Below the pieces are notes generated by a model, which worked only from the letters and a program-made list of their open reading frames with translations, had not been told where the DNA came from and did not search any database. From an uncultured Planctomycetia bacterium (GTDB lineage Bacteria > Omnitrophota > Gorgyraeia > VGKH01 > JBHPFN01), in the NCBI GenBank assembly GCA_964406665.1, contig CAYOSQ010000001.1, positions 71,412-135,411 on the forward strand: a stretch of DNA of 64,000 nucleotides. The letters are read 5' to 3'. The position numbers and the translations under genes were made by a program. This document shows positions 19,094 through 54,732 of the stretch, piece by piece (within the stretch, counting starts at the first letter, position 1; each line of letters begins with the position of its first letter).

Positions 19094-20509
19094 ATGGAAA
19101 GAAAGCCAAAAATCATATCTAAACACTCTTCAAAAGCATACCTATTATTTTTAATGGTCATAGGGGTTTGTTTTCTTTCTGCCAATACCTGCTTTGCTGC
19201 TTTCACTTTAAACGCTACTCCTTATGAAGGTGGATTCGACTTACGTTTTGGTTCTGTTGCAGGTGGGGCAAAGGCAAATAAGGAAGTTTCTATTAGCGTA
19301 ACAAGCGATATTGCAAAACAATATCGTGTAATTCAAACTTTTGCTCCTCTTACCAACTCAAAAGGTACAAAGCTGCCAACAAATTCTGTGAGAGTATATA
19401 CATTAAGAGGTTCTAATGCGGCAGGTACTTTGGGCTATGATGTTGAAAGCCCAATTTTTTTAGGCCCGATGGTTCTTTATACTTCTGCAAGCGCTGGCCG
19501 CAGCGATTCTTTTGTTGCAGTTTATTCTGTTGATGTGCCGGCAGATCAGGATCCTGGGCTGTATCGTGGCAGATTGATTTATAGTCTGGAGCCGATTGGA
19601 GCAGCTAACCAGGCACCAGTTATTAAAACACTAAATATATCTGTTGAAGTTGGATCATCTGCACAGCTTAAGGTCGAGACAATAACCGGCGGGAAGACAG
19701 TTATTTTAAAAACTTCCGCAAGTCAACAGGATTTATCACGAGACGTACGCATACAAGTAACTGGTTCTCTGGGCAATCGTTATCGTATTGTACAAAAACT
19801 GTCTAGGCCGATTACTAGTGCAACAGGAAAACAAATTGCCAAAGAGGGTGTATCTCTTTATGCACAAGGTGGAGAAAAAGGACAGCTTGGTATAAAAAAA
19901 CTCAGCTCTTTACCTGCAACGAATGTTATTTTATATACTTCTGACGAGCGCGGCAGCGCCGATGAAATCATTTTAACTTTTGCTTTGAATGATATCGATC
20001 AAGACGCCGGGATTTACCGTGGTGCATTAACATATACGATTGAAAGCTCTGTTCCTGTTAAGGGTGCAGGCATGACACAGATGTTGCCAATAGAAATTGA
20101 GGTGACTCCGTTGTTTAATCTTGTTGTTACAACAGATCATTCGGGCAGCATCGTTTTTAGAGATTTAAAACCGAACCAGCCTCCCAAGACAAGCGTATCT
20201 TATGTTGAGATCAAAACTAATTCTGATAAACCATATCAGGTAATGCAGACGGTTTCTGGTCTTTTAACTACCAAGGAAGGTAAAACAATTCCTGCGGGAT
20301 TTTTTAAATTGAAAACAACATCTGAAGAAAACAAAGATGGAATTAAATATCCTAAAGAGGCTGCTGTAGAGGATGGACAAATGGTTTTATTTACGTCGCG
20401 AGACGGAAAATCTGCGAAGCTGAAAGTTATTTATAAACTGGACATACCAAGAGACATCCATTCCGGTAACTATTCTACCGGAATTATATATTCTTTATTA
20501 GAGATGTAG
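19094..20509 (+). CDS. secreted protein with three tandem SCPU-like (spore coat U / Csu-type pilin-like) domains
   Basis: Signal peptide; three roughly 140-aa repeats each containing an xxYRVIQT-like motif and ending G(L/I)YRG.L.Y(S/T)(L/I)E. Confidence 0.45.
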   Translation: MERKPKIISKHSSKAYLLFLMVIGVCFLSANTCFAAFTLNATPYEGGFDLRFGSVAGGAKANKEVSISVTSDIAKQYRVIQTFAPLTNSKGTKLPTNSVRVYTLRGSNAAGTLGYDVESPIFLGPMVLYTSASAGRSDSFVAVYSVDVPADQDPGLYRGRLIYSLEPIGAANQAPVIKTLNISVEVGSSAQLKVETITGGKTVILKTSASQQDLSRDVRIQVTGSLGNRYRIVQKLSRPITSATGKQIAKEGVSLYAQGGEKGQLGIKKLSSLPATNVILYTSDERGSADEIILTFALNDIDQDAGIYRGALTYTIESSVPVKGAGMTQMLPIEIEVTPLFNLVVTTDHSGSIVFRDLKPNQPPKTSVSYVEIKTNSDKPYQVMQTVSGLLTTKEGKTIPAGFFKLKTTSEENKDGIKYPKEAAVEDGQMVLFTSRDGKSAKLKVIYKLDIPRDIHSGNYSTGIIYSLLEM

Positions 20510-20550
20510 ATGCCTTATTGTAAATCTGACAACGAGGAGGGGAATTACAA

Positions 20551-21171
20551 ATGATTAGAAAAGCAACCATTGCATTGCTAGCGGTATTGTTTTTAGGCAT
20601 GAGTTCAATGTGCTATGCCGACAATATTGTGAACGTAGATGTCAACGCTCAGATCCCCGATATGCTGGAGTTGAGTTCATGGATTAAGTATTTTATGGAC
20701 GAAAACCAAACTCCATTAGGTGATGCTGAAAGCTTTGACTTTGAGACACTGACACATACCCTAGAAGGAGGAGGAGAGGCCGGCGTATGGTTTTCGAGGA
20801 AATGGTTTACCATTTATCTCGTTGCTAATACTGGTGGCAGACGCTATCAGCTTAAGCAAACCTGTACTGGTGTAACCTCTGGTGGCAACGACATCAACAG
20901 CGCATTCGTTGTTACGCCTAATTATTCAGAATATGATGAATTAGGTGGTGTACCACAGGGTCCGATTCCTGGAACAATAGGTGTTCCAAATTTGGCTGTA
21001 TCAACAGACCATGTCCTTTATACAAGTGACACTGGTGGTTTAGCTCGTATAATCCAGGGTATTTACGCTATTCCTAACGAGAGCGAAGTAACTGGATATG
21101 AATCAATTAGTTTTGATACTCCACAGGGTGTTTACGGTGGTGAGGTAGTTCTTACAGCGGTGCTGTATTAA
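20551..21171 (+). CDS. secreted single-domain SCPU-like putative pilus subunit
   Basis: Signal peptide; RRYQLKQT and C-terminal GVYGGEVVLTAVLY, homologous to the repeats in the upstream gene. Confidence 0.4.
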   Translation: MIRKATIALLAVLFLGMSSMCYADNIVNVDVNAQIPDMLELSSWIKYFMDENQTPLGDAESFDFETLTHTLEGGGEAGVWFSRKWFTIYLVANTGGRRYQLKQTCTGVTSGGNDINSAFVVTPNYSEYDELGGVPQGPIPGTIGVPNLAVSTDHVLYTSDTGGLARIIQGIYAIPNESEVTGYESISFDTPQGVYGGEVVLTAVLY

Positions 21172-21176
21172 TATAT

Positions 21177-21360
21177 AGTTAAGGGGAAACAGTTGACCTC
21201 TTGCACAGCGCAGATCTTGTCTTTATAAGCTGCGATAGGCAAAACTTGTTGCCAGCTGAATAATAAATTCAAGAGAAAGCTTGTCATAATCTTTGATTGT
21301 TTGGTATAATATCATATAATATTTATCAAAGATTAAAAGGGGTCTGTGTTTCCCCTTAAC
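21177..21360. repeat. 15-bp perfect inverted repeats (agttaaggggaaaca / tgtttccccttaact) flanking a 154-bp segment that carries a TTGTCA-18-TATAAT promoter
   Basis: IR-L 21177..21191 and IR-R 21346..21360, visible in the sequence. Confidence 0.5.
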
Positions 21361-21391
21361 TATTATAAAGCACTAATTTATAAGGAGGCAA

Positions 21392-22237
21392 ATGAACATA
21401 AGGCATTTGTTGATGAAGAGAATCTGTCTATGGTTTTTAATTTGTGCTGCTTTGTGCTTGTTTGGTGTAGTTTATAATGCTGATGCAAGCACAGTCCGCC
21501 TGCAAAGACCAAAGGTTAGATTGAGCATTCCCTCCGGAAGTACTGAAAGCGGTTCAATTACAGTAGCTAATCCCTCGGATAAGAACGTAAATGTTAAAGC
21601 GTATCTCGAAGACTGGATATATACAGCCACACAAGATGGAATTAAAGATTTTGCTCCGCCAGGGACAACTCCTTTGTCGTGTGCGAAATGGATCAGCTTT
21701 TATCCTGCCGAATTTACTCTGCCGCCGTTTGGGTCTAGGGAAATATTTTTCGTGGTTAAAGTTCCCAAGGCAGTAGACGGTGGACATTATGCAGTATTAT
21801 TTTTTGAAACCGTTGTGGGATCAACTGTAGATGCTACCGGAGTCAATATTTTAATTAAAGGGCGCATTGGGTCATTATTTTATATAGAGGCAGGGGGCGT
21901 ACAAAAAGAAGCAACCATTACAGATATTTCTATTGCTAAAGCAGGTAAGGAAACTGCAATAGAAGCAGTTTTAAATAATATTGGCAACGTTGATATAACC
22001 GCCAACGGTTCTTTCAATATCATCGACAGCAAGGGCATGGTTTTTGCAAGAGGTAAGTTTAATGAGGTTTACACTTTTCCTGGAGATAAGGCGACCATAG
22101 CATCTGCTTGGTCTGCGAAAATTCCTGCAGGAGAGTATGATTTAATAATAACGTTGGACTTAGGCAATAAACCTTTAATATACGAAGCAAAGATTAATGT
22201 AAATGCTGCTGGCGAGGTACGCTATGTTGCCCCTTAA
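21392..22237 (+). CDS. PapD-like periplasmic pilus chaperone-like protein
   Basis: Signal peptide; VRLSIPSGSTESGSITVANPSDKNVNVKAYLEDW, ISFYPAEFTLPPFGSREIFFVV and VNILIKGRIGSLFYIE resemble the N-domain strands of chaperone-usher chaperones. Confidence 0.4.
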   Translation: MNIRHLLMKRICLWFLICAALCLFGVVYNADASTVRLQRPKVRLSIPSGSTESGSITVANPSDKNVNVKAYLEDWIYTATQDGIKDFAPPGTTPLSCAKWISFYPAEFTLPPFGSREIFFVVKVPKAVDGGHYAVLFFETVVGSTVDATGVNILIKGRIGSLFYIEAGGVQKEATITDISIAKAGKETAIEAVLNNIGNVDITANGSFNIIDSKGMVFARGKFNEVYTFPGDKATIASAWSAKIPAGEYDLIITLDLGNKPLIYEAKINVNAAGEVRYVAP

Positions 22238-22258
22238 GAATAGAAAAAAAAGGAGTTT

Positions 22259-25200
22259 ATGCGTAGCTGTAAAAACAGTCAGAGTATTTGTTTAAAAACA
22301 ATCATCGCAAGATGTATTCTTGCGATTCTTACATTGTCCTTTTTTTCTGCAAGCCTTCTTTTTCTCTCCAGCAGCCCAGCTTACTCTGAAGACCTTTCTG
22401 ATTTCCTCTGTGAATTAGCCACCAAATATTATGAGCGCGGAGATTATCCTAACGCGTTACACGAATTCAAAAAAGCTTTAATGATCAATCCCCATAATCG
22501 CACTGCGCAAAAATACATTGCAATTATCAGCGATCTAGAAGAAGTTGTTGTTGAGCCATCACCTTATCTGCCCATCGAAAGCATTCCTCAGGAATACAGA
22601 GACAAAGCTATTAAAAATGCACTGGATAGTTTTGATGAGGTTATTTTTGTAAAAGAGCCATATATCCAAGAAGAAACAGAATCTCAACCACCATTAATTA
22701 TTATTGATTCAGATGACGAACAAACTTTTCCTCAAGAAGAGCTGGATAAGTTTGATGAGGTCAGGGTCTCTAGAGAGCAGACTATTTTGGAAGATGTTCC
22801 TAAAGAACCCTCGATAGTAATATCTCCTGTGCAGGATAGGGAGATTATTGTTCGAAGTGCGCTCGATGAATTCGAAGCACGGTATGGGGCGGAAGATATT
22901 GTAGATATTGTGCCAGAGCCAGAAGAGATTGTTGAGGAAGAGCCCGAACACGAAGAAGCTATTTATTATCCTATCGAACCAGAGGAAGAATTTCCAGAGG
23001 AATTTGTTTCTACATCTTATGTTGAACCTTCCACAGACATAGAAAAGCCAAAGGGTTTTAAGCGTCTTTATCTTAATGTAGAAGTTAGGGCTTCGCAGCC
23101 ACAAACACAAATAAGTTTACAAATAGACAGAGATTTAATAATTATTGGAAGTAATATTGCTAGGTTTCTTGTGATTAATCCTGAAATTTTAGAGATTGTT
23201 AGATTGCGTCCCGACGAGATAAAGCTTGTGGCTAAGAAAATTGGAAGTACTTACGTGCATATCTGGGATGATGAAGGCCGGTGGACTTTTATCGTTCAAG
23301 TGTCACCGTTTCGCTCTGGCAGGCCGACACTTGCCGAGCTATATCGTCAGCAAGCCGAAGAGGCTGGTTCGTTAAAATTCCATTATTATAATGAATGGCG
23401 TTCGTTTTATTCTGGAAGAAGAGCGGATAACCTAACAAGGGATTCTCTTACTCTATATCAAAGCTTGGGTCTTGATATGCAGACTCCTTATGGAGATGTT
23501 GATGGCCGCGTTCAATTAAACAGGCTAAATGAAGAAAGCGAGCTCTCATTTTATACTTTAGGATTAACCGATGGCATGGTAGGTCCGTTTAAGAATTTTG
23601 ATCTACGTGCTTTAGATTATTATATAGATTTTGATAATATTTCTTTTGGTGGTGCGAGCTTGCGCGGTGTGAGGTTAGATGCAGAAGCATTTAATGAAAA
23701 AGTGGATTATACGGTTTTCTGGGGCAAAGAGAAAAGTGGGGCATTTGGTCCACTTGCTCCGGGGCTTGAGGGTTCAAACAAGTCATATCTTAAAGGTATA
23801 AATTTTGGATTCAACTCTCCGGAAAACCTTTATCAGACGCTTTCCTATTTCGCCGGATATGGTTCTGATAGGAGTTCTTTGTTGTTCCAAGATGCCTATG
23901 ATTATACGGGCGAGCTTAACTTAGGCGATACAAAATTATTTACCAACGTCGGACACGATGGCTATTCTCTGGCTTATATGCTAAGAGGTGTATATACCGT
24001 TCCTAAGCTTCAGTTAGCCGGCGAGTTTAGAAATATTGACGATGATTTTTATAGCATAACCGGCAGACCTTATGCATCAGGAGAAGTTGGTGGTTTGGTG
24101 AGCTATCGCTATGCCCCTTCCAGAGATCTAGATATCTCAGGACGCCTGAATGTTTATAGGGACACCTTGTTTCCTAACCCTCAACACAAAGAAAGATATA
24201 ATGCGGATTTCGATACTGCCATACGCTATACCATTAATCCTAGTACATCTATGAGGTTAGATTATTATAATGTTCATGATACCGGCACTATATCGCCGCA
24301 TAAAGATGAGTCTGTAGGATTATCCTTGTACAAAACAATTGATTTCATTAGGCCGCTTAGTACGTTTGTAAACTTAAGACATCAATCTAGTAAAAATCCT
24401 AGTTCGACAACTCTGGACTATAAAAATGAAAAAGCTGGCTTTGGCGTAAGAGTTGGCTTAACCGATACGCTTAATTATTATATCTCCAAGGAATTCAATT
24501 GGCTGGAGGATTATGCCGGAGATGTAGAAAAACCGCATGTTTTTGAGACGGGGCTTGATTATAATACCCAAATTCTCGACAGCCCGTTTTATATAACCTC
24601 TAGGCTTTATTTCCGGGATGAAGAAAATGCTGCTTCAACAAGAAGTTTCTTGGCTGGTGAAGATAATTTAGAAGGACAGGCTGAATTAAGGTATACCCCC
24701 AACGAAGATTTTAATTGCTACGCAAATCTACGAGTTAATAACTACTGGGCGGAAAACGCCGATACTACCAAGCGCACAGAAGCAGAGATTCGTTTCGGTA
24801 CACAATGGACTTTTGATACCGGCTTGAAATGGAATCCCATAGGTAGCATAACAGGCATTGTTTTTAAAGACTTGAATTCAGATGGCAAGCGTCAAGCGGA
24901 CGAGATTGTTATGAAGGATATTAAAATTTTCTTAGGAAGAGAAAAATTTGATATAACCGATGAAGAAGGAGCGTATATCTTTAAAAATATCCGTGCTCGC
25001 AAAGCCTTTGTTTACTTAGATACTAATACGCTACCAGCTGGATATGTGCCGACGGAAGAGAAATCCCAAGAGATAACAATTCAAAACGGCAAACTTATAA
25101 ATGTTGATTTTGGTGTTATAGCGCGTTCCGAAATATATGGTATTGTGTTTAAAGACTTAAATAGCAACGGAGAATTTGATGCTCAAGACGAAGGCGTGAG

Positions 25201-25420
25201 AGATGCTGTTCTATCTTTAGAAGATGGTTTAACAACCTCTACGAATGCAAGAGGTCAGTTTTATTTAAGAGAAGTTGCTCCTGGAAAACACACTCTTACC
25301 CTAGACATAAATAGCCTACCTATTAATCTTATTCCTTTGGTGCCGTTATTTAAAGAGATAGAGGTGTTTGAGGGAATTACCTATGTGCACAATATTCCTT
25401 TGAAAGAAACACAAGACTAA
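22259..25420 (+). CDS. large outer-membrane/cell-surface protein: N-terminal TPR, acidic linker, pilus-assembly (CpaC/secretin-N-like) domain, beta-rich Y/G/D/N region, and two C-terminal Cna-B/SdrD-B-like domains; putative usher-like component
   Basis: Motifs LQIDRDLIIIGSNIARFLVINPEILEIVRLRPDEIKLVAKKIGSTYVHIWDDEG; duplicated GIVFKDLNS(D/N)G...D modules at the C-terminus. Confidence 0.45.
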   Translation: MRSCKNSQSICLKTIIARCILAILTLSFFSASLLFLSSSPAYSEDLSDFLCELATKYYERGDYPNALHEFKKALMINPHNRTAQKYIAIISDLEEVVVEPSPYLPIESIPQEYRDKAIKNALDSFDEVIFVKEPYIQEETESQPPLIIIDSDDEQTFPQEELDKFDEVRVSREQTILEDVPKEPSIVISPVQDREIIVRSALDEFEARYGAEDIVDIVPEPEEIVEEEPEHEEAIYYPIEPEEEFPEEFVSTSYVEPSTDIEKPKGFKRLYLNVEVRASQPQTQISLQIDRDLIIIGSNIARFLVINPEILEIVRLRPDEIKLVAKKIGSTYVHIWDDEGRWTFIVQVSPFRSGRPTLAELYRQQAEEAGSLKFHYYNEWRSFYSGRRADNLTRDSLTLYQSLGLDMQTPYGDVDGRVQLNRLNEESELSFYTLGLTDGMVGPFKNFDLRALDYYIDFDNISFGGASLRGVRLDAEAFNEKVDYTVFWGKEKSGAFGPLAPGLEGSNKSYLKGINFGFNSPENLYQTLSYFAGYGSDRSSLLFQDAYDYTGELNLGDTKLFTNVGHDGYSLAYMLRGVYTVPKLQLAGEFRNIDDDFYSITGRPYASGEVGGLVSYRYAPSRDLDISGRLNVYRDTLFPNPQHKERYNADFDTAIRYTINPSTSMRLDYYNVHDTGTISPHKDESVGLSLYKTIDFIRPLSTFVNLRHQSSKNPSSTTLDYKNEKAGFGVRVGLTDTLNYYISKEFNWLEDYAGDVEKPHVFETGLDYNTQILDSPFYITSRLYFRDEENAASTRSFLAGEDNLEGQAELRYTPNEDFNCYANLRVNNYWAENADTTKRTEAEIRFGTQWTFDTGLKWNPIGSITGIVFKDLNSDGKRQADEIVMKDIKIFLGREKFDITDEEGAYIFKNIRARKAFVYLDTNTLPAGYVPTEEKSQEITIQNGKLINVDFGVIARSEIYGIVFKDLNSNGEFDAQDEGVRDAVLSLEDGLTTSTNARGQFYLREVAPGKHTLTLDINSLPINLIPLVPLFKEIEVFEGITYVHNIPLKETQD

Positions 25421-25471: not shown

Positions 25472-25726
25472 TTATCTTTCATAAAAGCTGTACAATTTAG
25501 CTTCTGTTAAGCGCTCTTCCTGAACACACAGCCTTTTTGTAGTATCTCGAATTTCAGCTTTAGCAGCTTCGATTTCACTTTGTTCTGTGTCCATCTCTAG
25601 CAATGCAGGGATTCTTGCAGAAACAGAAACTCGAGCAGTATTACCTGCCTCTACCGCGCTAGCCATCAAAGCGCAACCCAGCAAAATAATAACTAAAACG
25701 TTTGTAATAATCATTGTCTTTTTCAT
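25472..25726 (-). CDS. small secreted hypothetical protein (start at MKKTMII, preceded by GGAGGTG)
   Basis: Signal peptide followed by a charged helical region; the gene downstream of the tandem riboswitch candidates. Confidence 0.5.
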   Translation of the reverse strand: MKKTMIITNVLVIILLGCALMASAVEAGNTARVSVSARIPALLEMDTEQSEIEAAKAEIRDTTKRLCVQEERLTEAKLYSFYER

Positions 25727-25754
25727 CGGTACCACCTCCATAAATTTTCAAAAA

Positions 25755-25812: not shown

Positions 25813-25905
25813 CTACGGCAACCCGACAACCATAAAGACAGCCGATGTCTTTTTAGGCTCAAGGCTTTGTGCCCTACTCTTTCGAAGTAGTTTACTTTTA
25901 AGGAT
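25813..25905 (-). ncRNA. candidate c-di-GMP-I (GEMM) riboswitch aptamer, copy 2 (proximal to the CDS)
   Basis: Minus-strand RNA GUAAACUACUUCGAAAGAGUAGGGCACAAAGCCUUGAGCCUAAAAAGACAUCGGCUGUCUUUAUGGUUGUCGGGUUGCC matches the recalled GEMM-I consensus (GCAAACC, GAAA-capped P1, GGACGCAAAGCC, GGGUUACC-like 3' end). Confidence 0.55.
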
Positions 25906-25929
25906 TTGAAAGAACGTTGCTTCCAACAA

Positions 25930-25960: not shown

Positions 25961-25961
25961 T

Positions 25962-26042
25962 TTGGCAACCCTGCCGCCTTCCCCCTTTCGGGAATAAGGC
26001 CGTTGGTTTTGCGTCCTTAGATTTCTCTAAGTTTGCCTTTTT
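25962..26042 (-). ncRNA. candidate c-di-GMP-I (GEMM) riboswitch aptamer, copy 1 (distal)
   Basis: Minus-strand RNA GCAAACUUAGAGAAAUCUAAGGACGCAAAACCAACGGCCUUAUUCCCGAAAGGGGGAAGGCGGCAGGGUUGCC; P1 CUUAGA-GAAA-UCUAAG with the GACGCAAAACC core. Confidence 0.5.
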
Positions 26043-26237
26043 CAAAAGCTAATATACTCTATAGAAACTATAGCACACAAAAAGCGCTTTTTCAAGTTGG
26101 CCAGGTAAATTTCTGAAAATTTTTAAACATCCTATTATGACATTTAAGCGTAACCGCTGAATTAGCTTTACTTTAGGTTTCTGCTATGATAGAATAGCAT
26201 TCACATTCAACAATATTTTTTAATCAAAAAACAAAAA

Positions 26238-28762: not shown

Positions 28763-28823
28763 ATTTAACCAATTGATATATAACGGCTTACATTGAAAAC
28801 CTCTATTAACTATTTTACCAGCT

Positions 28824-28851
28824 TGTTAATTAAATCTGTGCGTGCTATACT
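28824..28851 (+). promoter_or_regulatory. sigma70-like promoter (TTGTTA-17-TATACT) ahead of a roughly 160-nt leader of the pilin-like gene
   Basis: Hexamers and spacing visible in the sequence. Confidence 0.35.
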
Positions 28852-29016
28852 TTATATAGACAATGTTGAAAGGGTTGCCCGTCCAGAAATCTGGATTGGG
28901 TGGCAAAACTATAGGACCGCTTTGTTTAGCAGCGGCAACCAGTTGCCAGCATTGAATAATGTAGACCCATTCTAATGGAGTGGGTTATTTTTTATGGGTT
29001 TTAAAAGGAGATTAAA

Positions 29017-30342
29017 ATGAGGTCAAGAGGATTTTCTTTACAAGAAGTTCTGATTACTATTGTTTTAGTTCTTGTTTTAGGTGGGGCAGCGTTTAAAGCA
29101 CTTGTTGTTGGCCAAAACACATTTTTTTCTAGCTCTGCTCTGCTAGACTTGCAGCAACATGCTCGTGAAGGCATAGATAGAATGACAGATGAATTACGAC
29201 ACAGCGCATCGGGAAAAGTTACAATTTATCAATGTCCTTCAGAAGTATGTGAGGGTGGCGCTATAGCATTTCAGGTTCCTGTAGTTACGGATGATCCTAT
29301 AGCTGGAAGCACATTTAAACCAACCGGCTTTGGTGCCGCACAGAAAAAGTGGGGGTTTGATGGAAGGGAAAGTTCTTCACCAATTATTTATTTGGCTCCT
29401 GCTGCCGGCGGTGCTTTGTCTCAATATAGTGGTAAATTAATTAGATTAACATCCAAAGATCAATATTGTGGAAATGGTATCTGTGAGACCGGAGAAACAA
29501 TAGCTTGTTGTCCTGATTGTAGTTTTGTTTCTGGTGATGGAGTATGTTGTTCTAATTTAGGAGAACGCTCTTGGAATTCTAGCGATTGCGGGGCTTGTTT
29601 TCTTAAAGAGACGCCCATACAGATGGCAGATGGAACTTCAAAAAATATTGAAGATATAAAAATTGGTGATATGGTATTATCTTTTGATGAGCAGGAAAAG
29701 AAGTTAGTGGCTGACGAAGTAAAAAACGTTGCTAAACAAAAAGCAGATAATTATATTATAATAAATGGCCATTTAAGGGTTACACCCAATCATCCGTTTT
29801 ATAGTAATGGTCGATGGATGCCCATAGGAGATCTACAAGTAGGAGATGTTATTTTTACTTCACAAGCCAAAGAAGAGCTTATTACGGAAATTGTAAAAGT
29901 TGAAGATACTGTTGAAGTATATGATATAGAAGTTAATCCATATCATAATTATTTTGCCGGAGGCTATCTAGTGCACAATAAGGAGGTATTGCCAGAAATA
30001 CCACCAGTTATGGAAGGTGGCGGTTCGTTTGAAATACCTGGCGGGCGCAGTTGGCTAGGGCCTCGTTTGTTTCTAGGCATAGCCTTTGCTCAGGAAGTTT
30101 CTCCTTTAGCACCAAATATAGATATGTATGATACATTGCCTGCGCTTGACAGTATATCTAATTATGATATTAAGATTCTTGCAGAAGACGTTAGAGGGGT
30201 TTATTTTCTTGGTACGCCCCTTCCGCCGGATAAGCCAAACACCGTAACAGTATTTGTGGATATGTATAAAGAGATTTTTGGCGGCGGTGACGTGCAGACA
30301 CATTTATCAACAGAGATGAAGTTAAGAAATCTTAGTTTGTAA
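29017..30342 (+). CDS. type IV pilin-like protein (class III signal peptide RG|FSLQE) with a Cys-rich module and an embedded Hint/BIL domain (about nt 29596..29979)
   Basis: N-terminal MRSRGFSLQEVLITIVLVLVL; Hint blocks CFLKETPIQMADGTSKNIEDIKIGDMVLS, TPNHPFY and VYDIEVNPYHNYFAGGYLVHN. Confidence 0.6.
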   Translation: MRSRGFSLQEVLITIVLVLVLGGAAFKALVVGQNTFFSSSALLDLQQHAREGIDRMTDELRHSASGKVTIYQCPSEVCEGGAIAFQVPVVTDDPIAGSTFKPTGFGAAQKKWGFDGRESSSPIIYLAPAAGGALSQYSGKLIRLTSKDQYCGNGICETGETIACCPDCSFVSGDGVCCSNLGERSWNSSDCGACFLKETPIQMADGTSKNIEDIKIGDMVLSFDEQEKKLVADEVKNVAKQKADNYIIINGHLRVTPNHPFYSNGRWMPIGDLQVGDVIFTSQAKEELITEIVKVEDTVEVYDIEVNPYHNYFAGGYLVHNKEVLPEIPPVMEGGGSFEIPGGRSWLGPRLFLGIAFAQEVSPLAPNIDMYDTLPALDSISNYDIKILAEDVRGVYFLGTPLPPDKPNTVTVFVDMYKEIFGGGDVQTHLSTEMKLRNLSL

Positions 30343-30368: not shown

Positions 30369-33140
30369 ATGATGAGAAGCTTTAGGCTTAACAACAAGGG
30401 AGCAGCTCTTCTGCTAATTTCTCTTTTATCGCTTATAATGTTAGCGGTTATCGCAGGAGTTCTGTTTTCTCGCACTGTAGGAGAAAATCTGTTGGTTAAA
30501 AATGAACAGATCAGCTTTGAAGCACAGTATGCTGCAGAACAAGGAGCGGAGGCGGTATATTTAGAGCTATTAAATGCTCCGTTTCGTTCTCGGTGGTATA
30601 CACACGAAGTTCCCAATTTTCACTTTGGAGACAATACTTTGGATCAGGCGAATCCTCCTGTCGTTTCTACGGCCGATCTCGTAGTTCCCAACACCATGAT
30701 TAATACTTTAGGAGAATATGCTTCTACTGATGGTAGCAATGTCAGCTTTATTGCTAAAATATATAATGATCCTTCTACTTTATATTCCGGAAGAGAAAAA
30801 ATTATCCTGATAAAAGGTTTTAGCAGTGATGGAAGGCGCTCAAGATTATTGGCTGTTAAGGCTTCGATGCATTCTTTATTTGAATATTTTATGTTTGCCC
30901 CAACAACAGGAATAAATTTTGAAGGCGGTACTTTTGATGCCGGCGGAGGTAAAATTCATTCCGAAGGCGGGATGCAATTTTATTCAGGTGCAGAGATTAA
31001 TAATGTAAGTCAGCTAAGCACTTCCGGCGGATCATTTTTCTACTATACGTATCCACGCAGACCACCATTATGGATTGATCCTGTTGCTGGAGTTCCGCCA
31101 CCAGGAATGTTTACAGATGCCGACGGAAGAACTTTGGCTATGCGCGAAGATACAGGATCGCCGGATGGAACCACTTGGGCAGAGATATTTGCTCTTGGGC
31201 CTGATTTTGCTCCTGAAGACTATTGGCAACAGGGGTGGTGTGGCAATGCAGAAGCATTTGAGGAGTGCTCTTTTGATGTTCAGGCAGCCACTATGTATCC
31301 TGATACAGGCGCCGAAGGTCTCTTAGAGGATAAGTTTATACACCAAAGCACTACCGGTCGCTTAATGGGAGATAGGTATGGAGCTATTTGTTATAACCCG
31401 AATGTAGGTTATGAAACCAGTTGGGATTGTGCAGAGCTCTGGGGTACATATGAGGCAGGAGCGATTTGGGATATGGTTGATCCAGATTTTGATACTGATT
31501 CTGCAAGAGTATATATGTATGATGATTATGGATCATCTACGGAATTAAACAGTAGCGCAGCTACAATACAGCCCGTAGGCGCAGATCCTGTTAAGCTTCC
31601 TAACAGGCTTTTGGATTCTCCATATAGACGACCTAAATATTATACTGATCAGAATCAAGAGGGATATCGCCGCGAAGAACATGATGGGGAGCATTATGTT
31701 TATCCTGCTAATACAGGAGCGGGGGCATATGATCCGGAGGACATGGAAGGTACTTGTTCGGGTGAGGTATGTCCAGATGTTACATATCTTAACAGTCTTA
31801 AACAGCCGGAATCTTGGTCTACATTTTTGCAAGATACCGGATTATACGGAACTGTAATGGATGCTAACACAGGCGCACCAGAAGAAGGCATTGCTCCTCC
31901 GAGAATAGACGCTGATGCATTAAGGGATCTTGCCATGCAAGATGGCATTAGGATTATTAATACTGTGGATTCTGAGGAGTGGAATGATAATCCAGAACTA
32001 TATTATGAGAATCCTGACTTTACTTTGCAAGACAACGGAAGCTACCAGGTTATAATCAAGGGGCAGATTTACATGCCAAATCCAGAAGGCAAGATTATAG
32101 TTAATATACCTGGGTTAGGTTCAGTCACTCTGTTTGAAAAAATAGGGTTTTATCGCGCAATTGATACACACTACGAACAATCTGTCAAAATCGACGTAGG
32201 TAATCTTAAGGCTGCTATGGCGGAAGATCCTGATAATTTTGCCACAGATTTAAACTTTGCTTATTCCGATTACCCAGTAGCCTTGGTAAATGGAGAAAGT
32301 CTCCCAGAGGGTGGTTGGAGTGTTGTTTCCGACGGAGCAGTTTATATAACAGGTAATTACAATACCGTTGATTATCAACCAGCTATGGTTTTAACGCCGG
32401 TTAATAAAACATATCTGCTTGGTCCGGATTACGATTTTCCTGACTATGTTCCGTATACTTTGGAGCATGTAGACGAAAACTACAATATGCCTGATGGGGA
32501 ACAGGATTGGTGGAATAATAATTATAATGATCAGAAACCATCAGAAGTTAATGAGGATATGACATATCGTGTATCGATAATAGGTTATAATGCTGCAAAA
32601 ACTACTTGGTTGCGTTGGGAAAACAGTAATGAGATTTGGAGTGATTGGAATGGAGGGCCAGATCGTCCATGGATTACGAAAGAGATCGCAGGAACTTTGT
32701 ATCGTCTGCCGTATGATCCAAGTGCTTCTCCGGGTGACGAGGATTATTATAATCGTGTATACGACTATGGAGGTGTTGGTAGAATTGCAAGAAGAAAATG
32801 TACGGGTTGCAATGGCGTAGGTCATACCATGGGTATTGTTCCTGATGGAGCCGGATATGCTGTTTGTCGAGGTTGTTCGGAATGGTGTTTTACTCCAGGA
32901 GAAGGAGTGAGTGCGACTAACATAGGCTCTTTATGTGATAATTACGATGGCCCTCAAGCCTCTACTGGTACTAACAGCACTACTTATTCTTGGGAGCCAG
33001 ATTATATGAATGGTAATTTGCCGCCCCCTGATTTAGCAGGTATGAATTTTGCTGCCTGGATGTTGCTTGCGGACACACAAGAGAATTTTAATAATCACCT
33101 AAGTGCATTGCAAAGTGAGGAAACTGAAATTATAGAATAA
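30369..33140 (+). CDS. large (923 aa) PilX-like minor-pilin/tip-associated protein with C-terminal CxxC pairs
   Basis: N-terminal NNKGAALLLISLLSLIMLAVIAGVLFSRTVGENLLVKNE resembles PilX_N; C-terminal CTGCNGVGH...CRGCSEWC. Confidence 0.45.
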   Translation: MMRSFRLNNKGAALLLISLLSLIMLAVIAGVLFSRTVGENLLVKNEQISFEAQYAAEQGAEAVYLELLNAPFRSRWYTHEVPNFHFGDNTLDQANPPVVSTADLVVPNTMINTLGEYASTDGSNVSFIAKIYNDPSTLYSGREKIILIKGFSSDGRRSRLLAVKASMHSLFEYFMFAPTTGINFEGGTFDAGGGKIHSEGGMQFYSGAEINNVSQLSTSGGSFFYYTYPRRPPLWIDPVAGVPPPGMFTDADGRTLAMREDTGSPDGTTWAEIFALGPDFAPEDYWQQGWCGNAEAFEECSFDVQAATMYPDTGAEGLLEDKFIHQSTTGRLMGDRYGAICYNPNVGYETSWDCAELWGTYEAGAIWDMVDPDFDTDSARVYMYDDYGSSTELNSSAATIQPVGADPVKLPNRLLDSPYRRPKYYTDQNQEGYRREEHDGEHYVYPANTGAGAYDPEDMEGTCSGEVCPDVTYLNSLKQPESWSTFLQDTGLYGTVMDANTGAPEEGIAPPRIDADALRDLAMQDGIRIINTVDSEEWNDNPELYYENPDFTLQDNGSYQVIIKGQIYMPNPEGKIIVNIPGLGSVTLFEKIGFYRAIDTHYEQSVKIDVGNLKAAMAEDPDNFATDLNFAYSDYPVALVNGESLPEGGWSVVSDGAVYITGNYNTVDYQPAMVLTPVNKTYLLGPDYDFPDYVPYTLEHVDENYNMPDGEQDWWNNNYNDQKPSEVNEDMTYRVSIIGYNAAKTTWLRWENSNEIWSDWNGGPDRPWITKEIAGTLYRLPYDPSASPGDEDYYNRVYDYGGVGRIARRKCTGCNGVGHTMGIVPDGAGYAVCRGCSEWCFTPGEGVSATNIGSLCDNYDGPQASTGTNSTTYSWEPDYMNGNLPPPDLAGMNFAAWMLLADTQENFNNHLSALQSEETEIIE

Positions 33141-50377: not shown

Positions 50378-50514
50378 AAGTAGGCAGGGGGTGGGCTTAA
50401 GGGGATATCCACATAGTTAGACCGAAGGTCGTCAAGAAACCGCTTTCTTGAAACACTACATTTACTCTTTTCTTTGTAGAATTAGATGTTATTCTTTTAG
50501 TAATAGACAGATAA

Positions 50515-50650
50515 AGGTAAACCATCAGAGATGGTGGGACGCAAAGCCACGGGTCTAGGAAGGGTCAGCCTAGATTAATATAAAGTCTTTTTGAAGAATA
50601 TCTTAGGCAATTATCCTTTATTTAGATAGCCGGGTTACCAAAAGGTGGTT
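50515..50650 (+). ncRNA. candidate c-di-GMP-I (GEMM) riboswitch aptamer, copy 3
   Basis: GGUAAACCAUCAGAGAUGGUGGGACGCAAAGCCACGGGUCUAGG...AGCCGGGUUACC; an 11-bp GU-containing stem gccggguuacc-aaaa-ggugguucggc followed by a U-rich tract, then the AAGGAGAG SD and ATG at 50683. Confidence 0.45.
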
Positions 50651-50682: not shown

Positions 50683-53600
50683 ATGAAAAAGAAAAAAATC
50701 CTAGGAATAATTATTTGTTTAATAGTGATAGCAAGCCTCTGTTTTTTAGGTAATGCTGTGGCATTTCAAGGTCAAGATGCTAATACAAAATTAAATCAAC
50801 AGGCTAATAAGCTTTTGACGCCAGATGTGAAAAAGATCAATGAACTTGCGTCTGATGTCCGGGCAAATATCGAAAGACTCACTCAGAAAAGAAGTGACAT
50901 AGAAATTTCGAGTTGGAATTTGTCTACGGAGACACCACATAGAATAATTTCTAAAAACATTAGATTAGGCAAAAATATTCAAATCAACAAAGATAATATA
51001 GAGTCACTTACGAAAAATTTCATTTTGAGTCAACGAGATTTGCTGAAAGCGGATATAACTAATCTGAAGTTAATAAGGGCGCATAACATCAACAATAAAT
51101 GGTATGTAACATATCAGCAATATCTAAATAATATCCCAGTATATTATGGACTTGTTGAAATTAGAATGAGTGGAAAAGGAGAAATTTCGCTTTTTGGTTC
51201 AGATTACCATTCTGAAATAGAAATTTCCACCAAACCTTCGATTCTTGATGAAAAAGTTATACGCATAGCTCAAAAGGATATTGAGTTCAATGAAAGCACA
51301 GATTCAATATTTTCTTATCCAGGACTTATAGTTCTACCTGTTCAAGATGGCGGATCTATAAAATATCAGCTTGCCTACAGACTCGTACTTTCTACCAAAA
51401 ACCCTATTGGAAGCTGGGTTTTCTTTATTGATGCGCACAATGGAACGATACTTGCCAAGTATAACAATATCAAATTTTACCAAATTGATGGCAGTGTTAA
51501 TGGAGAAATATTACCGCAATATTATGATGATGAATTGGTGCAGAAAAATTTTATTCATGAAAGGGTTGAAGTTCAAGATATTGGATATGATTATACTGAT
51601 TTGGATGGATATTTCAGCATTACTGGAGATGCAGATGAAGGAGAGCAATTTACTTTAATTTCAGAATTAAAAGGCCCATATGTAGATGTGGATTATGAAG
51701 ATGGTGATGATGCAATTTATCTCGAAGAAATTGAAGCTCAGGGAACGTATGATTGGACATGGGATGCTTCTTTAGGGAGGCAGGACGAACTCAATGTTTA
51801 TTATCACGTCAATCGAATCCATGATTATGTAAAGAATAATCTTGGGTTTTCTGGCATGGATTATCAAATGAAGGCAATGGTTTCTGTTTTTGAATATTGG
51901 GATAATGCATTTTACAACCCAGATGATGAAAGCATTAACTTTGGAGCAGGTGGTGTAGCTTATAGAAATTTTGCTCTTTTTTCTGACGTTATTTATCATG
52001 AGTATGCCCATGGCGTTACTGATCATATTTATCCGGAAGGTTCGCTGCCTTATTTTGGACAATCAGGAGCAATGAACGAGGGTTTTTCAGATTACTTTGC
52101 GTGTACAATTAGTAATGAGCCTTATTTAGGAGAGGGGGGGCTCAGTAAATTTGGCTTGCCATACATGCGTACAGTTGATAATTCGGCTCGATACCCAGAT
52201 GATTATATCAACCGAGTACATCATGACAGCATGATTTTTTCTGGTTCTTTGTGGGATTTGAGAGAAATGTTAATAGATAAATACGGTGAGAATTATGGCA
52301 TAAAAAAAACCGATACTTTATCACATCTTGCTCGCTTTGGATATCCTGAAAATTTTGAGGATTATCTCCTTGAACTTTTATTTGTTGATGATGATAATGG
52401 CAATATTTATGACGGCACACCTAACTCTGTCGAAATATATACGGCTTTTTCTAGACATGGAATAGGTCCTGAGCCCACTGCGGTAGGTATTCAATATTTT
52501 GGTTCATTTATTGATGATGCAAATGGCAATAATAACGGATTGCTTGATCCGGGTGAAACTGTAGAGCTTGAAGTCACCCTTTTAAATAATCTTATAGAAA
52601 GTCTAGGCGGTTATGCAATTCATAATGTTACAGCTAGGCTAGTTAGCGTCGATCCATATATTACCGTTTCGAATAAGAAAATTTTGGTTGGAGATCTTAA
52701 ACCTCAGGAAACGGGTGTTGCAAGATTTAAGATTACGCTGGAAGATGCACCTGTTGATTGGAACGATTATCAAATTGACTTTTCTTTAGAAATAACCGGT
52801 TCCCCTGTTACTACAAATAATTTTTCTATAGATGCTACGGATTTTTGGCAAAGCAATTTTCGGATTCCAGTTGCATTTTTGGATTTGACTCATAGAAAAT
52901 CCTGGTATTATGATGAAGAGCTAGGAAATAATGATCGTTTTGCAAATCCGGGGGAAACAGGAGAGATATTAATTGCTGTTAAAAACACCGGTCTTCTTGT
53001 TGCCACGGGAGTAGTTGTAAAAGTTGCTTCAAACAGTCCATATGTATTTGTTCTAGAGGATGAGGCTTATATTGAGGATATCGATCCAGGAGATAGTGGA
53101 TATGCTTCTGTGATGGTTCAATTTTCTGATACAGTTCCCGTAGGCATAGAAGTTGACTTTAAAGCTGAAATTAGCGCTGACGAAGGTTTTTTAATGTATT
53201 TTCCAATAGAGATATTTGTTCCCAGGATAATATTTGATGATCATGCTTCATCAAGCGGAGTTGTTGGGGATTCTACTTATTATCTTCAGCAAGCTGTGTT
53301 TGGTGATTATGATAATGATAATGATCTGGATATCTATATGGCTATGCATGAAGATTGGACAGTTCCAGCCCTGGATTTGCTCTATCGAAACAACGCAGAT
53401 GGCACGTATACAGAGTTAGGAGAAGAAGCAGGAGTGAATTCATTGTTGTCTTCAACGCGCGCTACGTTTTTTGACTATAATAATGATAACTGGCTAGATT
53501 TATTTATTTTGCACGATGAGGATAATACTCTGTTTCGCAATAATGCAGATGGAACTTTTACTGATGTAACTATGGAAGCAGACATAGATACTAACGGACA

Positions 53601-54732
53601 GGGTAACACAAACAATACCGCAGGTATATTAATCGGAGATTTTGATAACGATGGTTGGCTTGATGTATTTACCGGCGGAGCATTCTATCGAAATAATGCT
53701 GACGGTAGCTTTACTGATATCATTGAGCACTCAGGTATCATAGGGGGATCCGGCTATAAATATGTATCAATAGCCCTTGATTTCGATAACGATAATGACT
53801 TAGATATTCTCTGGTCAAGCCGTGACGAAGATGTTCTCTATCGCAATGACGGCAACTTTACGTTTTTTGATATTTCTATAGAAGCAGGTATATTAGAGCG
53901 TGAACAATTAATTATTAGCGATATAGCAATAGGTGACTATAACAATGATGGTTGGCTTGATGTATATATTGTTTCACGCGGAGGATATTCATGGTATAAC
54001 CCAACCCCAAACATGCTTTATCGTAATAATGGCGATAGTACATTTTCGGAGGTAGGGGCATATGCCGGAGTAAATGATAGTTTAGCATTAGGAGGCGACG
54101 CAATTTTTGCCGACTATAATAACGACGGATACTTAGATATTTTTGTAGCAAATGAAGGTAGGCAAAGCGAAGATTGTTATGGTGGTTGCTCTAGGTCGTT
54201 TCAGGCAGACTCTCTTTTTATAAATAACGGTAATGATACATTTTCTGATATCGTTTCTGGAACTATGGCAACTGCACCAGAAGTTGGAAGCACGCTTAAT
54301 TGGAGGATTAGCTCCGCAGATAGCAATGATGATGGGTTCTTGGATATATACTATGCCCATACTGATTTCGATAGTCCAGATATTAATCAACTACTTATTA
54401 ATGATTATTTTACTGATACACAAAATAATTGGCTTAAGGTTAAGCTTGAAGGAACAACAAGTAACAAAGATGGTATCGGAGCTAAAGTAAAAGTTGTTTG
54501 TGATGGTCAAGAACAATTAAGAGAAGTATCTAATCATCAGGGGCAGAGTTTAGAAGTAGAGTTTGGACTAAAAGGATATTCATCGATAGATTTGTTAGAA
54601 ATAACCTGGCCAAGTGGACAAATGCAAAGCTTGCAAGATATAGCTGCGAATCAGACTATTGCTGTTATTGAAGAGGATAGGCCACCAAGGCCACATCCGG
54701 GCAAGAAGTCCATTTTACCCTTTTTGTTTTAG
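50683..54732 (+). CDS. giant (1349 aa) secreted multidomain protein: M36 (fungalysin)-like zinc metalloprotease, FG-GAP/VCBS-type beta-propeller repeats, and a C-terminal ASPIC/UnbV domain
   Basis: Signal peptide; HEYAHGV (HExxH) with downstream NEGFSDYF Glu ligand; repeated DYDNDNDLDIY / DFDNDGWLDVF / DYNNDGYLDIF motifs; C-terminal NKDGIGAKVKV...LEITWPSGQMQSL. Confidence 0.7.
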   Translation: MKKKKILGIIICLIVIASLCFLGNAVAFQGQDANTKLNQQANKLLTPDVKKINELASDVRANIERLTQKRSDIEISSWNLSTETPHRIISKNIRLGKNIQINKDNIESLTKNFILSQRDLLKADITNLKLIRAHNINNKWYVTYQQYLNNIPVYYGLVEIRMSGKGEISLFGSDYHSEIEISTKPSILDEKVIRIAQKDIEFNESTDSIFSYPGLIVLPVQDGGSIKYQLAYRLVLSTKNPIGSWVFFIDAHNGTILAKYNNIKFYQIDGSVNGEILPQYYDDELVQKNFIHERVEVQDIGYDYTDLDGYFSITGDADEGEQFTLISELKGPYVDVDYEDGDDAIYLEEIEAQGTYDWTWDASLGRQDELNVYYHVNRIHDYVKNNLGFSGMDYQMKAMVSVFEYWDNAFYNPDDESINFGAGGVAYRNFALFSDVIYHEYAHGVTDHIYPEGSLPYFGQSGAMNEGFSDYFACTISNEPYLGEGGLSKFGLPYMRTVDNSARYPDDYINRVHHDSMIFSGSLWDLREMLIDKYGENYGIKKTDTLSHLARFGYPENFEDYLLELLFVDDDNGNIYDGTPNSVEIYTAFSRHGIGPEPTAVGIQYFGSFIDDANGNNNGLLDPGETVELEVTLLNNLIESLGGYAIHNVTARLVSVDPYITVSNKKILVGDLKPQETGVARFKITLEDAPVDWNDYQIDFSLEITGSPVTTNNFSIDATDFWQSNFRIPVAFLDLTHRKSWYYDEELGNNDRFANPGETGEILIAVKNTGLLVATGVVVKVASNSPYVFVLEDEAYIEDIDPGDSGYASVMVQFSDTVPVGIEVDFKAEISADEGFLMYFPIEIFVPRIIFDDHASSSGVVGDSTYYLQQAVFGDYDNDNDLDIYMAMHEDWTVPALDLLYRNNADGTYTELGEEAGVNSLLSSTRATFFDYNNDNWLDLFILHDEDNTLFRNNADGTFTDVTMEADIDTNGQGNTNNTAGILIGDFDNDGWLDVFTGGAFYRNNADGSFTDIIEHSGIIGGSGYKYVSIALDFDNDNDLDILWSSRDEDVLYRNDGNFTFFDISIEAGILEREQLIISDIAIGDYNNDGWLDVYIVSRGGYSWYNPTPNMLYRNNGDSTFSEVGAYAGVNDSLALGGDAIFADYNNDGYLDIFVANEGRQSEDCYGGCSRSFQADSLFINNGNDTFSDIVSGTMATAPEVGSTLNWRISSADSNDDGFLDIYYAHTDFDSPDINQLLINDYFTDTQNNWLKVKLEGTTSNKDGIGAKVKVVCDGQEQLREVSNHQGQSLEVEFGLKGYSSIDLLEITWPSGQMQSLQDIAANQTIAVIEEDRPPRPHPGKKSILPFLF

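Follow-up and report, generated by a model that had tools for sequence, protein, structure and literature searches.

What might an intein-related Hint domain be doing in the middle of a pilin? The question is raised by a 64,000-nucleotide stretch of DNA (the window; positions 71,412 to 135,411 of contig CAYOSQ010000001.1, assembly GCA_964406665.1) from an uncultured bacterium of the Omnitrophota lineage. Its coding sequence 29017-30342 (forward strand, stop codon included) encodes a protein of 441 amino acids (aa) that is identified by its open reading frame (ORF), profile searches and an AlphaFold2 model as a minor pseudopilin of the GspJ class with an inserted Hint domain. An earlier sequence-only reading had described a pilin-like protein with an embedded Hint domain; this description is supported here and refined, the host being assigned to the GspJ/PilW class and the insertion to the linker that joins the two sheets of its fold. 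We lean, if only slightly, towards the interpretation that the Hint domain excises itself by double cleavage, giving a two-chain pilin that acts with the product of an adjacent partner gene, presumably at the tip of a filament.

The N-terminus of the protein, MRSRG followed by FSLQEVLITIVLVLVLGGAAF, has the form of a class III (prepilin) leader with Gly at -1, Phe at +1 and Glu at +5 (FSLQE), as had been proposed; the leader motif and the predicted alpha-1 helix behind it occupy residues 1-60 (29017-29196, +). The ATG at 29017 is the earliest possible start in its stop-to-stop frame, and a Shine-Dalgarno sequence, AAGGAG (29005-29010, +), can be read 7 nt on its 5' side. Scores of the window protein against prepilin profiles are just below the cutoffs (17.8 against 21.2 for Pfam N_methyl, 16.0 against 16.3 for TIGR02532). 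The family as a whole supports the assignment: N_methyl is matched at E <= 0.1 by 19 of the 23 Hint-less members, of which the first exceeds the cutoff (best E-value 4.5e-10), and a profile of the host family matches the N-termini of solved pilins in the PDB. The prepilin motif of the pilin ORF is the sole one in a six-frame translation of the window.

AlphaFold2 recovered both the pilin parts and the Hint domain, with confident models of the window protein (predicted local distance difference test score, pLDDT, of 85) and of its Hint-less relative P0007 (pLDDT 81, predicted template modelling score, pTM, of 0.73). The long alpha-1 helix packed on a beta-sheet that distinguishes type IV pilins is present: the helix comprises 53 residues (aa 8-60, pLDDT above 90), and a first set of strands (aa 68-146) falls within the region of beta-sheet 1 (aa 61-146; 29197-29454, +), which includes the invariant pair Cys73/Cys78. 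On the far side of the Hint domain, a low-confidence linker (aa 322-365; 29980-30111, +) that begins with the +1 residue Lys322 is predicted to be disordered (pLDDT below 50 at 329-356) and is hypervariable in the alignment. It is followed by beta-sheet 2, the C-part of the pilin (aa 366-441; 30112-30339, +), delimited by the AlphaFold2 model and by a hidden Markov model (HMM) of the C-part, with four long strands (aa 383-435, pLDDT above 90) and the terminal family motif ...MKLRN. In P0007 and P0008, homologues without a Hint, the C-part directly adjoins the N-part. An alignment to EpsJ covers 135 of 159 residues, beyond what the N-part by itself could provide; because of this coverage, and because P0007 folds with the pTM given above, the C-part is assigned to the same pilin fold, which has the two-sheet architecture of the GspJ type. 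The host is a GspJ/PilW-class minor pseudopilin rather than a generic or major pilin, with no match to a GspJ or PilW family in Pfam or NCBIfam at E <= 1 and no gspI-like or gspH-like gene next to its own. It would be incorporated in a filament, presumably at the tip.

The Hint domain itself (aa 194-321; 29596-29979, +) is an A-type bacterial intein-like (BIL) or PT-HINT domain, not a canonical intein. A profile search was positive for PT-HINT (PF07591) on residues 194-321 (E 4e-16, 60 bits against a cutoff of 27.7) and for Intein_splicing (39 bits against 35.8), and the score for the B-type-like Hint_2 (PF13403) was below its cutoff (22.1 against 28.4). Chance could not account for a match of this strength. 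The Hint blocks are intact, comprising Cys194, T256-P-N-H259 (the T-x-x-H motif), VYDIEVNPYHNY, and H320-N321 followed by K322. Sequence matches in the PDB are headed by two BIL domains, the closest structures are likewise two BIL domains, and the model has the Hint fold. No other Hint domain was found in the six-frame translation of the window. In an alignment of 33 Hints of the same clade, Cys1 is invariant and at least 90% retain T-x-x-H and a terminal H-N, P0034 being the sole family member to have lost the latter; H-N is followed by Lys in 103 of 121 copies and by Cys, Ser or Thr in just three. The sequence-only reading had placed Hint blocks at about 194-321 and had called the domain BIL-like from the Lys after H-N, and both claims hold: the PT-HINT score is above the cutoff, BIL domains are the closest structures, and the site of insertion is hypervariable. 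A-type BIL domains are recognised by the lack of a +1 nucleophile, a terminal H-N, residence in hypervariable parts of secreted proteins, and mostly cleavage products (PMC7765530, PMC7664689). Splicing at low yield without a +1 nucleophile is possible for such domains, to go by the title of Dassa et al. 2004 as cited in PMC7765530.

The Hint domain is not part of a folded domain: it interrupts the disordered linker by which beta-sheets 1 and 2 of the pilin are joined, and its flanks (aa 150-190 and 329-356) have low pLDDT, are hypervariable and cannot be aligned between homologues. A canonical (class 1) intein was considered and rejected, the +1 residue being Lys322 and the insert lying in a disordered, variable linker; because it is only 128 aa long, it has no homing endonuclease. 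The G+C content of the Hint-coding segment (33%, against 41-42% in the flanks) led to no conclusion about a recent foreign origin: G+C content at third codon positions (GC3) is 0.223 in the N-part and 0.211 in the Hint, and since the N-part is as low as the Hint, the low-G+C signal is not Hint-specific. In a separate observation, the first 321 codons (29017-29979) have GC3 of 0.22 and 0.21 against 0.34 for the C-part (29980-30339); 128-codon windows of other genes average 0.31 (standard deviation 0.044), 0.5% of them being as low as the N-part and Hint. This step in GC3 could mark a recombination boundary close to the junction of Hint and C-part.

The linker on the N-terminal side of the Hint domain carries a Cys-rich module (aa 151-191; 29467-29589, +), also noticed in the sequence-only reading, in which Cys positions define two degenerate repeats of the form C-G-[ND]-G-x-C...E...C-x2-D-C. 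Nine Cys lie between residues 151 and 194 (151, 156, 164, 165, 168, 177, 178 and 191, plus the catalytic Cys194), in addition to Cys73 and Cys78, and the Cys-rich loop coincides with the low-pLDDT flank at 150-190. Searches of Pfam and NCBIfam with the repeat gave no match. The repeat, generalised as C-G-[DN]-G-x-C-x(3-6)-E-x(3-6)-C-x2-D-C, is present in 0 to about 7 copies in the pilin linker of homologues and tens of times in other proteins, with 79 Cys in P0039; it was noted in the window protein, P0022 (locus L008, 5995-7161), P0008, P0039 and P0048.

The host family is small and its Hint content varies. When the whole protein was used as query, the search returned full-length relatives (34-38% identity) that NCBI names Candidatus Omnitrophota and, besides these, P0007 and P0008, two relatives that lack the Hint domain and keep both the N- and C-terminal regions. 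An exhaustive phmmer search of 1.84 billion representative proteins with the Hint-less P0007 as query returned only 118 proteins at E <= 1e-3; family members are marked by an N-terminal KG, followed after the cleavage site by F(T/S)LxE, and by a C-terminal S-x-V-x-L-R-N. Scanning a genome collection with the host N-domain located two loci only, and a first metagenome scan with this domain located none, its back-translated pattern being too narrow. Among 70 representatives with both N- and C-parts, 55 have no Hint domain, 13 have one, P0002 has two and P0046 has three, and every copy is inserted at one common site.

Host and Hint domains have different nearest relatives. The closest host relatives of the window protein (P0007, P0022 and P0008) are Hint-less with contiguous N- and C-parts, and its host domains are nearest to Hint-less proteins (P0007: 52% identity for the N-part, 42% for the C-part), whereas its Hint domain is nearest to Hints of more distant hosts. 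The Hint tree is discordant with the host tree, and Hints of the unrelated hosts P0010, P0011 and P0018 nest among the pilin-host clades. Because the two sets of relationships disagree, repeated gain, loss or shuffling of the Hint module is indicated. Recent duplication was rejected as the origin of tandem Hints: copies 1, 2 and 3 of P0046 are nearest to P0002.1, P0002.2/P0031.1 and P0050.1, respectively, and not to one another. One Omnitrophota genome (GCA_042571725.1, JBHPFN010000002.1, 3458-17194; locus L004) has four tandem pairs of pilin and partner genes behind a single riboswitch, the pilins containing 3, 1, 0 and 0 Hints and 1, 1, 0 and 1 Cys modules. This array looks like a set of cassettes of alternative tip modules.

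The partner in the window is a conserved gene for a 923-aa protein with an N-terminal hydrophobic segment (30369-33140, +), 26 nt on the 3' side of the pilin gene. The pilin gene is always accompanied by such a partner: the pairing recurs in L004 (four times), L005, L006, L008, L016 and L023, with partners of about 780-970 aa, and it extends to Hint-less copies of the pilin. Although the family is conserved in its alignment (A4), searches of Pfam, NCBIfam and PDB sequences with profiles turned up nothing that matches the partner, and when its family alignment served as a homology query, only the query itself came back. One match to GspK (E 0.48), in one of six members, is too weak to count as evidence; the N-terminal hydrophobic segment may resemble that of GspK/PilX.

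The same Hint clade is distributed far beyond this family. A metagenome scan with the clade located at least 452 confirmed loci, of which the best 80 were examined; in 55 of the 84 other host ORFs at these loci, no more than 25 residues separate the Hint domain from the C-terminus, and arrays of two to four copies are common. Because C-terminal placement predominates, cleavage on the N-terminal side is taken to be the common activity of the clade. Several of the hosts are pilins. Another small minor pilin has a C-terminal Hint in L010 (1528-2421) and L025 (1153-2046) and two in tandem in L020 (3143-4441), in each case within a type IV pilus-like operon beside a Hint-less, more distant J-like gene, and a PilA/GspG-like pilin in L026 (673-1707) has a 27-residue poly-Pro linker and then a C-terminal Hint. 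Longer arrays were also observed in proteins with three or four tandem Hints, followed in L058, L080, L087, L071 and L074 by a conserved tail of about 440 aa and in L063 and L081 by shorter tails of 157 and 216 aa; Cys1 and H-N-K are kept in every copy. In L015 (2221-4411), a 272-aa protein with a partner-like N-terminus (weak match to the partner HMM, E 3e-4) precedes a P0011-like secreted protein with a C-terminal Hint, and a riboswitch of the c-di-GMP-I-GGC type (cyclic diguanylate; 60.5 bits) lies ahead of this operon.

Two loci contain J-like pilins in pieces. L023 (2178-6880 of Ga0209310_1000003, a 1.27-Mb contig) has a c-di-GMP-I riboswitch, split pilin genes and then a partner gene. 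Gene 1 consists of a J-like N-part (E 3e-23), Cys repeats, a Hint domain and then a stop codon; gene 2 (P0009, found under three NCBI accessions and on five contigs) consists of a signal peptide, a weak C-part-like region, Cys repeats and a Hint of its own, and the partner gene (E 1e-97) follows it. The similarity of gene 2 to the C-part is in register and weak, at 10.0 bits where the best of 491 scored shuffles reached 8.4, and the C-part HMM of the family finds nothing there at E <= 0.01. The J-like pilin of L023 appears to be split in two genes, each ending in its own Hint. L016 has a signal peptide, a spacer, a Hint domain and a J C-part (E 2e-12), followed by a partner gene. L023 and the C-terminal cases are incoherent unless the Hint domain cuts on its N-terminal side, and L016 is incoherent unless it cuts on its C-terminal side; these forms also call for halves of a J-like pilin that can work as separate chains. 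This natural variation is the strongest evidence on mechanism, the variants making sense only if both cuts work. Together, the series of zero to three copies, the split gene and the mostly C-terminal Hints elsewhere favour self-removal by cleavage, and they are silent on its timing relative to assembly.

In the mechanism that we favour, the pilin would be inserted into the membrane, its leader would then be removed after Gly5, and the Hint domain would fold outside the cytoplasm. An N-S acyl shift at Ala193-Cys194 would convert this bond to a thioester, and Asn321, aided by His320, would cyclise and cut the Asn321-Lys322 bond; because there is no +1 nucleophile, cleavage rather than splicing would be the main outcome. 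The 128-aa Hint domain would be released, and the N-chain (F6-A193) and C-chain (K322-L441), held together as a single GspJ-like fold, would pair with the 923-aa partner, presumably at the filament tip. We infer actual cleavage, the two-chain product, the regulation of the window copy and the purpose of a removable domain; the sequence-only reading had suggested cleavage after assembly, or covalent attachment at the pilus tip, as possible functions.

Several observations weigh against this mechanism. The N-C chain is covalently continuous in 55 of the 70 representatives, a state that re-ligation would restore, and since the C-part has no Cys, there would be no covalent tie between the cleaved chains. 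Cys194 is part of C191-G-A-C194 and stands beside eight other Cys, so that an oxidising periplasm might lock it in a disulfide and inactivate the domain; the C191-x-x-C194 motif also raises the possibility of redox control. The C-part call in gene 2 of L023 is weak (10.0 bits against the shuffle maximum of 8.4), pilus assembly genes are absent from the window, profile and PDB searches recognised nothing related to pili in the partner, and the leader of the window gene scores under every riboswitch threshold.

Intein-like splicing is a clearly less probable explanation. The alpha-amine freed by Asn cyclisation would attack the thioester, Ala193 would be re-joined to Lys322 in a mature pseudopilin of about 308 aa, and the Hint domain would be a tolerated or selfish passenger. 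Contiguous N- and C-parts in the nearest host relatives (P0007, P0022 and P0008), the gain, loss and shuffling suggested by discordant trees, and the integrity of every splicing-relevant residue but the +1 residue are as this explanation would have them, and splicing by BIL domains that lack a +1 nucleophile has been reported (Dassa 2004; Aranko 2013; as cited in PMC7765530 and PMC7664689). Their products are, however, predominantly those of cleavage (PMC7664689), and the clade's mostly C-terminal Hints have tails of only 1-25 residues, which leave nothing to splice onto. Neither the apparently split L023 nor L016, which lacks the N-part, could be spliced into a complete pilin; hypervariable flanks stand where an intein would have conserved extein motifs, and the 128-aa domain is without a homing endonuclease. 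Improbable, in our estimate, is a transfer reaction like that of Hedgehog proteins, or a 'harpoon', in which the Hint domain would be kept until needed and the Cys194 thioester resolved by an external nucleophile. The main architecture of the clade, a passenger followed by Hint and a short tail, is the Hedgehog arrangement, C-terminal Hints occur on three pilin classes (L010/L020/L025, L026 and L023), and Omnitrophota have been proposed to be host-dependent or predatory and to use pili (PMC10066038; 10.1101/2023.11.21.568195). Yet the short and variable tails contain no adduct-recognition region comparable to the sterol-recognition region, any acceptor molecule would be hypothetical, tandem arrays of two to four Hints are hard to fit with a single transfer, and the conserved C-terminal H-N indicates that cleavage on the C-terminal side is under selection in internal copies.

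The chance that the Hint domain is not processed at all, and is a permanently displayed binding or spacer module of a 'modular pilin' or is redox-locked or inactive, seems smaller again. Modular pilins with grafted domains are widespread, and an IPR012902-PF07591 architecture is among those listed (Raynaud et al. 2021, PMC8179133); C191-x-x-C194 could trap Cys1 in a disulfide, and P0034 has lost the terminal H-N. The near-complete conservation of Cys1, T-x-x-H and H-N in the clade nevertheless argues that the chemistry has been retained, and tandem arrays in which all copies keep their catalytic residues would be unexpected of binding modules. Far less credible still is a polymorphic toxin, in which a PT-HINT domain would release a C-terminal toxin domain. 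PT-HINT is the best Pfam match, and P0003 is named 'polymorphic toxin-type HINT domain-containing protein' by NCBI, but the 120 residues after the Hint domain are the second beta-sheet of the pilin itself, conserved in Hint-less homologues, contiguous there with the first and ending in ...LRN, and they match no toxin family in Pfam or NCBIfam. Instead of a small immunity gene, the next gene on the 3' side is that of the partner of about 780-970 aa, which is found beside Hint-less copies as well. The identity of the post-Hint segment effectively refutes the toxin interpretation.

Regulation of the pilin gene may involve cyclic diguanylate. The leader has, in order, a promoter-like site (28823-28851, +; TTGTTA, a 17-nt spacer, TATACT and an extended -10 TG, identified by a consensus scan alone), a candidate divergent c-di-GMP-I (GEMM-I)-like aptamer (28863-28950, +), a terminator-like hairpin and the Shine-Dalgarno sequence. 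The aptamer candidate is a full-length, sub-threshold Rfam match (RF01051, 17.6 bits against a gathering score of 35, E 0.33), scores 13.9 bits (E 0.1) with a lineage-specific covariance model, and has the invariant core positions of bona fide copies. The hairpin right after it, a putative expression platform (28964-28995, +), has a 10-bp stem and then the U-run ATTTTTT; a hairpin and U-run also follow the equivalent element in L006 and L008. Bona fide riboswitches of the c-di-GMP-I class lie directly on the 5' side of J-like genes in L004 (50.5 bits), L005 (59.6 bits, GGC variant) and L023 (56.9 bits). Expression of the window pilin is probably gated by a riboswitch of the c-di-GMP class and a terminator in the leader, as far as its sequence allows this to be predicted.

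The element in the window (28863-28995) and those of L006 (1455-1585) and L008 (7339-7470) form a shared GEMM-I-like variant, below the Rfam threshold in all three, that carries GGUUGC instead of GGYAAAC, has the form GCAAAACUAUAGG...ACCAGUUGCCA and is followed by a terminator. In the window it lies on the 5' side of the pilin gene; in L006 and L008, where the closest relatives are encoded, it separates the pilin gene from the partner gene. Covariation evidence is weak, there being three sequences only; the variant may be a riboswitch class with altered ligand or structure.

Around the pilin and partner genes, the window contains glmS and rsmI on the 5' side, pyr genes after the partner, and dnaA, dnaN, gyrB and gyrA; no prepilin peptidase, PilB/PilC or other pilus assembly gene was found within its 64 kb. 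Four consecutive secreted proteins are encoded at 19094-25420 (+), and only the last (1053 aa) has Pfam matches, to TPR, T2SS-T3SS_pil_N and SdrD_B/CarboxypepD_reg-like domains; this cluster could consist of uncharacterised surface-structure or outer-membrane genes. Between the 1053-aa gene and glmS are tandem c-di-GMP-I riboswitches on the reverse strand (25814-25906 and 25961-26047; 62.9 and 78.2 bits), and the only plausible gene on their 3' side is an ORF of 89 aa with a signal-peptide-like N-terminus (25472-25741, -). Another c-di-GMP-I riboswitch (50506-50642, +; 62.8 bits), with an insertion of about 64 nt in P2, precedes a gene (50683-54732) for a 1349-aa secreted protein with M4/M36 metallopeptidase, FG-GAP and ASPIC/UnbV domains. 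At least three genes for secreted proteins are predicted to be under c-di-GMP control in the window.

Comparison with known systems indicates which features are new. To A-type BIL or PT-HINT domains (PF07591; Amitai et al. 2003; Dassa et al. 2004; 2lwy of C. thermocellum; 6tmm, BIL2 of Tetrahymena BUBL1), the window domain is similar in Cys1, T-x-x-H and the terminal H-N, in the lack of a +1 nucleophile, and in its location in a hypervariable region of a poorly conserved secreted protein, and by analogy N- and C-terminal autocleavage would be expected of it. It differs in that its host is pilin-class, that the insert splits two sheets of one fold, that zero to three copies are found at the site, and that its subclade has a nearly fixed Lys after H-N, kept even at the end of a protein. 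It shares the Hint fold, Cys1, T-x-x-H, H-N and presence/absence polymorphism among homologues with canonical class 1 mini-inteins, but it lacks a +1 Cys/Ser/Thr, occupies a variable linker of a secreted protein instead of a conserved housekeeping site, and belongs to a clade with tandem copies and mostly C-terminal placement in other hosts. Compared with Hedgehog (Hog/Hint), it lacks a sterol-recognition region and a known adduct and keeps the C-terminal H-N for a second cut.

On the pilin side, the window protein resembles GspJ, EpsJ, XcpW, PilW and Thermus TTHA1219 in that a larger protein is encoded next in the operon; in operons of type II secretion systems, gspK comes after gspJ. It differs from GspJ/PilW proteins in lacking sequence-profile membership and gspI-like or gspH-like neighbours, and in having Cys-rich repeats and an inter-sheet Hint, which those proteins do not have; its partner is three to four times larger than GspK and cannot be recognised by profiles. 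Modular type IV pilins (Raynaud et al. 2021, PMC8179133; S. sanguinis PilB with a vWA module) are similar in carrying a grafted, independently folding domain, but their modules are C-terminal, permanent effectors (adhesins, lectins, peptidases), whereas that of the window protein is internal and, by analogy, would be catalytic and self-removing. The bare combination of pilin and Hint is not unseen, because Dataset S1 of PMC8179133 lists one IPR012902-PF07591 architecture, without analysis or comment. No paper tying Hint, BIL or intein domains to pilins was found in the literature library that was searched. As far as could be established, the J-class host, the inter-sheet insert, the copy number of zero to three and the split genes are new, and so are the obligatory partner gene, the link to c-di-GMP and the presence of the clade on several pilin classes.

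A broader proposal, to which we assign a low probability, is that this Hint clade is a general device of Omnitrophota and relatives for maturing or arming type IV filament subunits via a C-terminal thioester, which in the window protein would form on the Cys-rich loop of a tip pseudopilin. Resolution of the thioester by water would make the Hint a self-removing pro-domain that times assembly; resolution by an external nucleophile would covalently couple the pilus tip to the partner or to a host or prey surface. This second route would be the Gram-negative equivalent of lipid attachment in Hedgehog proteins, or of the 'harpoon' adhesins that act through a thioester on Gram-positive pili. Variation among tips would come from exchangeable pairs of pilin and partner genes controlled by c-di-GMP.

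Type IV filament subunits mature by leader cleavage, N-methylation and sometimes glycosylation; to our knowledge, no Hint domain has been described that cuts such a subunit internally by autocatalysis. If the Hint domain is active, pilin maturation would include a new step that yields a two-chain minor pilin, and BIL/PT-HINT domains would have a defined physiological substrate beyond toxin systems; the compact clade with Cys1, H-N and Lys at +1 might also be useful as a self-cleaving tag. The natural series with zero, one, two and three copies and the split-gene variants are ready controls. The c-di-GMP riboswitches and multiple pilin/partner cassettes bear on pilus-tip variation in these uncultivated, possibly host-dependent bacteria.

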